A DNA stretch of 64,000 bases. It comes from an uncultured Gemmatimonadota bacterium. Its GTDB lineage: Bacteria; JAAXHH01. Shown here one piece after another: positions 5,850-6,227 of the stretch (positions are counted from its first letter, which is position 1; each line of letters opens with the position of its first letter). The notes below the pieces were generated by a model that had not been told where the DNA came from, searched no databases, and saw only the letters and a list, made by a program, of their open reading frames with translations. The position numbers and the translations under genes are program-made. The stretch covers positions 3,456,001-3,520,000 of the forward strand of contig OX638340.1 in the NCBI GenBank assembly GCA_951812955.1, in the 5' to 3' direction.

Positions 5850-6227
5850 TCACTCCCGGCCTTCCGTCAACGCCCTGACCTCCCCCTCCACGCGTCCAAG
5901 CCGCTTGTTCATTGCATGTATTTCCACCTGGATGGCTGCATGCTCTTCGCGCATCTCTTCTCTGATGGCGGCGTGCTCTTCGCGCATCTCTTCACGCATT
6001 GAGGTGTGCTCTTCGCGCATCTCTTCTCTGATGGCGGCGTGCTCTTCACGCATCGCATTTCTGAACGATAGGAATTGCTCCTGCATTTCCGTCCGAAACG
6101 ACCGGAATTCCTCTCGCATTTCGATGCGCAGTTCGCTGGTGGGTTGCCTGGTCCAGGTGATTACAGCAAAAACGAGGATGCCGACGGCCGCCAGCGCCTG
6201 GATGAATACGATCAGTTTCTGATACAT
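5850..6227 (-). CDS. small membrane-anchored coiled-coil repeat protein (XhlA/DUF1640-like motif), 125 aa
   Basis: N-terminal TM helix LIVFIQALAAVGILVFAVITW, then heptad-like REEF/REEH repeats including four exact in-frame 33-bp (11-aa REEMREEHAAI) tandem units. The C-terminus AMNKRLGRVEGEV is shared with ORF 16848..17093 (RMDKRFDTLEKKV) and with several remnants. It is divergent from the LRR gene at 6924. Confidence 0.6.
   Translation of the reverse strand: MYQKLIVFIQALAAVGILVFAVITWTRQPTSELRIEMREEFRSFRTEMQEQFLSFRNAMREEHAAIREEMREEHTSMREEMREEHAAIREEMREEHAAIQVEIHAMNKRLGRVEGEVRALTEGRE
5937..6068. repeat. 4 tandem near-identical 33-bp units (in-frame, encoding REEMREEHAAI repeats)
   Basis: Direct reading shows gcgtgctcttcgcgcatctcttctctgatggcg repeated 4x with 1-3 substitutions each. 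Confidence 0.85.

Follow-up and report, generated by a model that had tools for sequence, protein, structure and literature searches.

Introduction

Several groups of proteins that carry a long helical rod or stalk have been described, and they differ in where they are anchored and in what the helix does. Braun's lipoprotein Lpp and domain II of TolA are anchored periplasmic alpha-helical rods whose length sets a distance, and XhlA (PF10779) is a small protein with a coiled coil and one transmembrane (TM) helix, the latter lying at the C-terminus. In the apolipoproteins ApoE and ApoA-I, which are eukaryotic, secreted and free of a TM anchor, helical repeats of 11 residues with much E, R and K stand in tandem and expose a wide hydrophobic lipid-binding face. 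In the DUF1640 or CCDC90-like family (PF07798), which comprises MCUR1 and CCDC90B in mitochondria as well as tail-anchored homologues in bacteria, a small protein with a long, charged helical stalk is anchored in the membrane by a C-terminal TM helix, and its hallmark is an N-terminal head, after which the stalk opens with a beta-layer motif, [aliphatic]-A-T-K-x-[DE] (PMC4786415). The present work concerns a small gene, open reading frame (ORF) 5850 (5850..6227, minus strand), in a stretch of 64,000 nucleotides (nt) from an uncultured Gemmatimonadota bacterium (GenBank assembly GCA_951812955.1, contig OX638340.1, positions 3,456,001 to 3,520,000), hereafter called the window.

The product of ORF 5850 is probably a membrane-anchored oligomeric stalk of evolvable length. 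Together with its homologues it forms the N-x-RLGRVEG small membrane protein family, which is defined here, without an earlier name, by an N-terminal TM helix with a conserved Q and G, a stalk of 7- and 11-residue repeats and the C-terminal motif after which it is called; the family is a lineage-restricted variant of membrane-anchored hendecad-stalk proteins. An earlier note on this DNA had placed ORF 5850 and two further ORFs of the window (16848 and, possibly, 18784) in one family of XhlA- or DUF1640-like coiled-coil membrane proteins with tandem repeats, and its observations are confirmed here in part, as its interpretation is in part supported.

A Conserved Gene for a Modular Stalk

ORF 5850 is a real, conserved gene under purifying selection in its minus-strand frame. 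A search of 5.8 billion proteins returned 48 homologues of 70-160 amino acids (aa; E 8.5e-62 to 4.6e-6), and on a contig (L001) that shares 93% identity with the window in the syntenic region there is a 125-aa orthologue. Its DNA is 91% identical, with a synonymous divergence (dS) of 0.30, a nonsynonymous divergence (dN) of 0.048 and a dN/dS of 0.16 over 375 nt. The family alignment consists of an N-terminal TM helix, MYQKLIVF[IV]QALAAVGILVIAVI, with invariant Q10 and G16, of a variable middle part and of an invariant C-terminal N-x-RLGRVEG tip, in which N107, R109-R112, E114 and G115 do not vary. All three defining features of the family are found in ORF 5850, whose TM helix spans residues 5-23 and whose C-terminus is hydrophilic. 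The AlphaFold2 (AF2) model, calculated as a monomer only and with the family alignment as input, predicts a helix at residues 2-25, a short break at TRQP and a continuous helix at residues 30-124, with a mean predicted local distance difference test score of 81. The TM helix, which is predicted by both hydropathy and AF2, and the hendecad and heptad periodicity of the stalk bear out the earlier description of a small membrane protein with a putative coiled coil. At least five subfamilies (A-E, with ORF 5850 in A) can be distinguished, all with the TM helix and a MNTRLGRVEG-x-LR tip, with shorter stalks.

The 125-aa ORF and its in-frame array of 33-base-pair (bp) tandem repeats are confirmed by the ORF list and by Tandem Repeats Finder (TRF), which places the array at 5931-6054 with 3.8 copies, 83% matches and a score of 185. 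The units had been called exact and, elsewhere in the same description, four near-identical copies; near-identity holds for units 1 and 3, which match at 32 of 33 positions and are the best pair, and every other pair matches at 22-27 of 33. Between the units, synonymous divergence has accumulated while the consensus at the protein level has been kept. Two EMxEEF-type hendecads (EMREEFRSFRT and EMQEQFLSFRN) precede the four EMREEH-type units, which brings the stalk to six hendecads.

When the stalks of 46 family members were split into 11-mer and 7-mer modules, all 46 decomposed without remainder, into 175 11-mers and 62 7-mers, and at the level of sequence the stalk is thereby shown to be built only of 11- and 7-residue modules. 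The consensus of the longer module is E-M-[QR]-E-E-[FH]-[RKA]-[SA]-[VFI]-R-[AET], and that of the shorter one, E-M-R-S-F-R-A, equals the 11-mer minus four internal residues. The inter-anchor distance is always 20+7a+11b residues, and it is 9 residues in a repeat-less copy of 59 aa. Hydrophobic residues occupy positions 2, 6 and 9 of the 11-mer and positions 2 and 5 of the 7-mer, the remaining positions being nearly all E, R, K or Q, and the resulting spacings, 4-3-4 and 3-4, match the cores of hendecad and heptad coiled coils (PMC4786415).

Among the closest relatives, protein lengths form a series of 103 aa (P0004), 114 aa (P0002), 125 aa (the window and P0001) and 136 aa (L002:1886-2296), in which the steps are single MREEH-type 11-mers, and the whole family ranges from 59 to 160 aa, so that the variable repeat number foreseen in the earlier note is borne out between related genomes. 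The shortest member is a second copy in L005, which has zero repeats and is still intact at 59 aa. As read from these sequences, adding or removing entire units of 33 or 21 bp is shown to alter the length of the stalk while the helical register stays unbroken and both the anchor and the tip are kept. The units also display what appear to be concerted changes between the window, where their order is AAI, TSM, AAI, AAIQV, and L001, where it is AAI, AAI, TAI, VDH-AAI, and in the clade of the window His replaces Phe as the central core residue in four consecutive units.

Relation to Known Families and Competing Explanations

The best Pfam match of ORF 5850 is PF07798 (E 8.3e-6), which is reached through the stalk (model positions 61-142) and at 26.2 bits stays below the gathering cut-off of 33.5 bits; sub-threshold matches to the same family were found in 18 of 25 members (E<=0.01; best E 9.5e-8). 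When 1.84 billion representatives were searched exhaustively with a profile, 2,991 of them matched at E<=0.001, nearly all via the repeat region. The matches sampled included a few proteins with the layout of N-terminal TM helix, repeats and RLGRVEG (P0050, P0052, P0057) and many tail-anchored proteins with the hendecad EM[KR]xEF[AK]AVRx, and within the latter group P0065 (41.7 bits) and P0069 (34.4 bits) exceed the Pfam cut-off and are true DUF1640 members. The number of hendecads varies in bacterial DUF1640-type proteins as well (P0056, P0063, P0065, P0174). A profile-profile comparison with hhalign of the family against four DUF1640-type proteins, one of them above the Pfam cut-off, gave a probability of 98.8% (E 7.8e-17) over 75 stalk columns and extended slightly past the repeats, with KRLGD of P0065 aligned to KRLGR. 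The stalk repeat is common to the two groups and is probably homologous. As a separate observation, P0054, P0069, P0074, P0089 and P0174 carry an N-terminal W-[TN]-D-[ED]-R-[LM], then EMKDEFKAVR hendecads and then a C-terminal TM helix; they belong to a large tail-anchored class, the layout of which is roughly the mirror image of that of the ORF 5850 family.

With such matches ORF 5850 could be taken for a divergent DUF1640/CCDC90-like protein of the MCUR1 family, sharing the function of the bacterial tail-anchored members, and the earlier note had called it DUF1640-like. That likeness stands for the stalk, whose hendecad consensus is shared with bacterial members, and fails for the rest of the protein: the score is sub-threshold, the similarity is confined to the low-complexity repeat, the TM helix is N-terminal instead of C-terminal, the polypeptide begins directly with that helix (MYQKLIVF...) and has no head domain, and it ends in its own N-x-RLGRVEG tip. 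The ATKxD motif of the beta-layer, present in true members, along with the head domain, as FATKADL and FSTKTDL (P0063, P0065), is absent from all 49 family sequences. Full membership is accordingly quite unlikely. The origin in phage or PBSX-type lysis that had been suggested, with XhlA-like proteins co-opted into a unit of leucine-rich repeat (LRR) genes, is effectively refuted. In its favour are a superficial resemblance of motif, a small protein with coiled coil and one TM helix, and a weak match of ORF 18784 to XhlA (E 0.057, 14.0 bits, below the cut-off of 34.7). However, a Pfam search gave no match to PF10779 at E<=10 for ORF 5850 or ORF 16848, the PHROGs search found no lysis family and only three weak matches, all to families of unknown function, and neither the neighbourhood in the window nor at least 10 syntenic loci, at which the chromosomal position is conserved, hold phage, holin or endolysin genes.

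An amphipathic helix of the apolipoprotein or late embryogenesis abundant (LEA) type, anchored by the TM helix, lying flat on membrane or lipid surfaces and serving membrane stabilisation or stress protection, would be another explanation. Periodicity of 11 residues is the hallmark of apolipoprotein- and LEA-like amphipathic helices, apolipoproteins E and A-I are the top matches of the PDB profile search (E ~4e-5 to 4e-3), 10 of 25 members have sub-threshold matches to the Pfam Apolipoprotein family, and the NCBIfam 'sll1863 family stress response protein' is matched at 22.7 bits against a cut-off of 35. Yet all of these matches lie below the family cut-offs, and only 3 of 11 positions are hydrophobic (M2, F/H6, V/I/F9), a stripe of ~100 degrees that is narrow beside the ~180 degrees of a lipid-binding class A face; the other eight are, with few exceptions, E, R, K or Q, and the central core residue in the window clade is His. 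The similarity to apolipoproteins most likely reflects 11-residue periodicity and composition and not homology, and the explanation as a whole is unlikely. It is very improbable that the ORF is incidental and that the DNA repeats themselves (33-, 14- and 13-bp arrays and ~90-bp modules) are a functional or selfish element, for instance as arrays that bind a regulator or as recombination substrates that diversify the LRR genes. The gene and its surroundings are exceptionally rich in repeats, truncated fragments of its cassette flank several LRR genes, and a mirror ORF (5797..6222, plus strand) is open opposite ORF 5850. The dN/dS of 0.16 in the minus-strand frame nevertheless argues for the protein, and in view of this purifying selection the mirror ORF is a by-product of the repeats; moreover, the protein consensus is kept despite synonymous divergence, and the TM helix and tip are invariant across species at ~45-60% identity and in subfamilies that have no leader.

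A Probable Membrane-Anchored Oligomeric Stalk of Evolvable Length

The preferred reading, a membrane-anchored stalk, has parts of unequal strength. The architecture of the family and its variation by modules, taken alone, can be regarded as very likely, and the topology of the protein and its role as a scaffold are much less certain. The narrow hydrophobic stripe would form a hendecad/heptad coiled-coil core, with self-association into a parallel bundle as the most likely outcome; the stalk would then hold the conserved tip, a candidate interaction surface, at a set distance of ~1-15 nm from the membrane, and replication slippage or unequal recombination between the 33- or 21-bp units would change this distance by changing the length of the stalk. 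We regard the protein as a likely scaffold or spacer, and not as an enzyme or lysis factor. The comparison with Lpp and TolA domain II, likewise anchored alpha-helical rods with a distance set by length, is a functional analogy only, and those rods are periplasmic, whereas the stalk of ORF 5850 leans toward the cytoplasm. A cytoplasmic stalk (N-out, C-in) is tentatively suggested by the positive-inside rule, the K+R count in the C-terminal flank of the TM helix being at least that of the N-terminal flank in 17 of 17 representatives and strictly higher in 13, and by the location expected for tail-anchored DUF1640 proteins.

Several points weigh against this reading. The flanks of the TM helix carry both charge signs, which makes the evidence for topology weak, and oligomerisation is inferred from periodicity of the sequence alone. 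Given the apolipoprotein matches, which are to 11-mer amphipathic lipid-binding helices, a helix bound along the membrane surface is conceivable, and the repeat-less 59-aa copy implies that stalk length may be nearly neutral and not functional. Repeat-rich, compositionally biased sequence inflates profile-profile scores such as that obtained with DUF1640 proteins, and the gene neighbourhoods of subfamilies B-E are heterogeneous, with no common theme, so that context offers no functional clue.

It can be speculated that the core histidines of the EMREEH units make the stability of the bundle dependent on pH or metal. A more elaborate proposal, for which we would claim little probability, regards the cassette as a lineage-specific, rapidly length-tunable membrane 'ruler' of sponge and coral symbionts, with 0-9 modules under diversifying or contingency-type selection, co-regulated through its leader with LRR-M66 lipoproteins, possibly by the neighbouring OmpR-type hybrid kinase, and, in the clade of the window, with a bundle whose stability responds to pH or metal through its core histidines; if true, this would add an evolvable component of a novel kind to the envelope or the host interface.

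The practical impact of the family is modest. It does supply a natural series of exceptional clarity for hendecad and heptad module gain and loss, from 59 to 160 aa and with the register kept, that is useful for the study of coiled-coil periodicity and of repeat evolution. The EMxxEFxxVR hendecad of bacterial DUF1640 proteins also occurs here on an oppositely anchored scaffold that has no head, which hints that the stalk itself may be a transferable functional unit, and this hendecad has the look of a widespread module without a name. For annotation, the lesson is that resemblance of motifs is insufficient for an XhlA or DUF1640 label.

Cassette Leader and Remnants

Each gene of subfamily A is preceded by a conserved leader of ~170-230 nt that is absent from subfamilies B-E and that is conserved, from the window through L001-L010, across species whose proteins are only ~60% identical. 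In the window it comprises block 1 (6414-6458, AAAAAGTYCGAGRATTYCGGAWTGGRCTCCGAC), tandem units of 14 bp (6325-6394, CCGGATGCGRCGAG), the number of which varies among genomes, block 3 (6268-6329, GGATGCGGTCCAATGTCTTCAAC-GTAATGAA...GGGGAACGAA-ATG) and, at 6229-6294, about five tandem copies of a 13-bp unit with a Shine-Dalgarno sequence, of which relatives have 1-2. The module of block 1 occurs four times in the window at a spacing of ~90 bp (Table 1). With its TCSGA direct repeats at ~10-bp spacing and no clear -35 element, block 1 resembles activator-dependent promoters of the OmpR/PhoB type.

An Rfam scan of 3500-19500 gave no match, and RNAalifold, applied to 11 leaders, detected no conserved RNA fold, only one hairpin of 4 bp with no covariation. 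A scan of 5600-7000 for sigma-70 promoters and terminators returned hits at or below chance level, none of them positioned to serve ORF 5850. LexA-type boxes of the form CTGT-N8-ACAG at 6410-6425 and 6594-6609 were considered as a conserved operator and rejected, the two being copies of one repeat. The window contains this E. coli-type LexA pattern three times, where 0.56 occurrences would be expected; the pattern is absent from the leaders at every other locus, and the two perfect palindromes in the ~90-bp modules are probably fortuitous. Control by the neighbouring hybrid kinase/OmpR-type regulator is attractive in view of the direct repeats in block 1 and the want of a clear -35 element, yet it is an idea only, as L001 and L009 keep the cassette and have no intact kinase nearby.

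The four remnants that the earlier note had listed fare differently. Three are found again within larger features (3888-3956 in 3868-3973, 5452-5500 in 5434-5503, and 17181-17222), as deletion derivatives of a repeated cassette, and the fourth, 13617-13760, is no coding remnant, being covered by a copy of the leader alone at 13701-13930. The remnant at 3868-3973 is 82% identical to 5825-5902 in blastn, has a tblastn E of 5e-4 and contains a 15-mer of block 1; it is separated by 44 bp from the stop codon of the gene for acyl-CoA synthetase, and at that place L002 carries an intact copy. The degenerate cassette at 17181-17370 was recovered by blastn to 13724-13879 and by nhmmer, which places block 1 at 17300-17256 (E 8e-8), and the conserved leader directly upstream shows that 17181-17222 is real as part of a cassette. 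Read together, the remnants of leaders and ORFs show the island to be a patchwork, put together as copies of the cassette and units of LRR genes recombined. In the window, one cassette is intact and several are decayed, and the comparisons between them show a cassette that, to judge from its copies, has been duplicated, truncated and recombined together with the LRR-M66 genes; so recombination-prone an element marks a plastic LRR island.

Table 1. Features of the window that belong to ORF 5850, its cassette and the ORFs compared with it
Feature	Position	Strand	Basis or remark
Gene, 125-aa single-pass membrane protein with predicted coiled coil	5850..6227	-	stop codon 5850-5852; subfamily A of the N-x-RLGRVEG family
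TM helix LIVFIQALAAVGILVFAVI, codons 5-23	6159..6215	-	hydropathy window, invariant columns, AF2 helix 2-25
Six consecutive 11-residue (hendecad) units, residues 36-101	5925..6122	-	TRF, repeat families, unit parsing of the family
Conserved C-terminal tip EIHAMNKRLGRVEGEVRALTEGRE	5853..5924	-	alignment; motif also in paralogue subfamilies B-E
EH unit 1, MREEHAAIREE	6053-6021	-	M-first register
EH unit 2, MREEHTSMREE	6020-5988	-	M-first register
EH unit 3, MREEHAAIREE	5987-5955	-	M-first register
EH unit 4, MREEHAAIQVE	5954-5922	-	M-first register
Conserved non-coding cassette leader	6228..6460	-	no Rfam family or conserved RNA structure
Three further, partly degenerate block-1 modules at ~90-bp spacing	6490..6728	-	repeat family, motif search, nhmmer match 6726-6698
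Second cassette shortened by deletion: last ~17 codons (RLGRVEGAVKPLTQGRE) joined in frame to part of block 1	3868..3973	-	
N-terminal (TM) coding remnant (RKQIVFIQALAAVCVLFTAVTT)	5434..5503	-	blastn 88.6% to 6183-6226; tblastn E 0.004
C-terminal remnant of hybrid histidine kinase/OmpR-type response regulator	5545..5797	+	blastn 82.6% to 16556-16777
Block-1 remnant directly upstream of the LRR lipoprotein gene starting near 11907	11839..11882	-	nhmmer E 1e-6, blastn
Leader-only remnant, no coding part	13701..13930	-	nhmmer block 1 at 13816-13779
Degenerate cassette: leader fused at AATGAAC to C-terminal codons, 10-codon ORF MNRRLERVES*	17181..17370	-	
81-aa orphan coiled-coil ORF, no TM helix, GC 0.451, not a family member	16848..17093	-	hhalign
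67-aa tail-anchored protein with C-terminal TM helix, not a family member	18784..18987	-	hhalign to ORF 5850 family E 0.24

Genomic Island and Distribution

Subfamily A is always found in one island, with LptD_2 and thiolase genes at one boundary and an acyl-CoA synthetase gene at the other (at least 10 genomes). The island holds genes for Big_2-LRR-Peptidase_M66 lipoproteins and usually one for a GAF-PAS-HisKA-HATPase-REC-Trans_reg_C hybrid kinase, and most often the small ORF and the kinase gene converge, 14-40 bp apart, with an LRR gene that diverges from the small ORF at a distance of ~600-700 bp. ORF 5850 itself is flanked by LRR lipoprotein genes, and the claim that it is embedded in an LRR gene unit holds in the window and at the syntenic loci. 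It adjoins an AT-rich intergenic region (6228-6893) with a guanine-plus-cytosine (GC) content of 0.40, which agrees with the AT-rich setting that had been reported. The lower GC ascribed to all three ORFs relative to their neighbours is seen for ORF 16848 (0.451) and not for ORF 5850 (0.561) or ORF 18784 (0.554), the mean of the window being 0.576.

Intact convergent pairs of kinase and small ORF exist in L005, L006 and L010. In the window, ORF 5850 adjoins only the kinase remnant at 5545-5797, and the intact kinase gene (14414-16807, plus strand) adjoins the decayed cassette at 17181-17370. Judging by its position and similarity, the remnant marks a presumptive ancestral convergent pair of kinase and small ORF, and the reciprocal decay of kinase and cassette would fit a duplication of a unit of kinase plus cassette. 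The link with the kinase is not obligatory, since L001 and L009 keep the cassette with no intact kinase nearby.

A scan that took one genome for each GTDB species identified 46 loci, all in metagenome-assembled genomes of ~3.5-4 Mb labelled Latescibacterota, Gemmatimonadetes or 'bacterium', plus one weak match, to the repeat only and with no C-terminal motif, in a Candidatus Palauibacter (L045). The most complete genomes have 4-6 detected copies, and others have as few as 1. The isolate names Plut_, IRC1_ and SB0665_ suggest coral and sponge metagenomes, and proteins with LRRs and other eukaryotic-like repeats are known to abound in sponge-associated Latescibacterota (PMC12993501).

Other Small ORFs and Repeats in the Window

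The grouping of ORFs 5850, 16848 and 18784 as one family is rejected. Comparisons by hhalign and BLASTP are negative, ORFs 16848 and 18784 are unrelated to each other too, and neither shows any of the three features that define the N-x-RLGRVEG family. The string M[ND]KR[LF]..[VL]E..V, on which the grouping had been based, is a generic heptad motif. ORF 16848 aligns with the ORF 5850 family at an hhalign E of 0.46 over 13 columns only; just 2 close homologues of it exist in the 5.8 billion proteins, besides a copy in L001 (L001:6238-6504) that contains a tandem duplication of seven residues, FDTLEKK (21 bp). It matches phrog_6701, a family of unknown function, at E 9e-7, and it has the degenerate cassette on one side and the intact kinase gene on the other.

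ORF 18784, which on profile comparison has no significant relationship to DUF1640, is conserved in several genomes, flanked by the genes for thiolase and LptD, and syntenic copies of it are 85-90% identical. Copies lie at L003:5088-5291, L005:3496-3720 and L010:3931-4149. The copy in L005 has a duplication of seven residues (MQNDIEL before MQSDIKL), and that in L010 one of five residues within the TM helix; from these two cases, small in-frame duplications seem to be common in the short helical proteins of the lineage.

A further family copy was sought near 33,200-33,480, where tandem repeats of the GGGATGCG type beside a second kinase paralogue had given a hint, and was rejected, as there is no ORF and no match to the leader. 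The region 33256-33476, between the kinase paralogue (30764-33259) and the gene of a 243-aa lipoprotein, consists of dense 13- and 18-bp tandem repeats, and some of its units (GGGATGCG...) resemble the 14-bp units of the leader. A unit of 33 bp is present twice, at 94% identity, in the intergenic region 17430-17496 upstream of the thiolase gene. Long arrays of the 9-bp units GGTCCGGCR and GCTGAYGGY occupy 23193-23503 and 25472-25518 and, if translated, would give collagen-like G-x-y triplets; a called protein in L005 (14773-15675) has a weak match to Pfam Collagen. Finally, a tandem repeat of 351 bp with 2.9 copies and 81% identity extends over 50665-51674 and probably encodes repeated protein domains on the minus strand.

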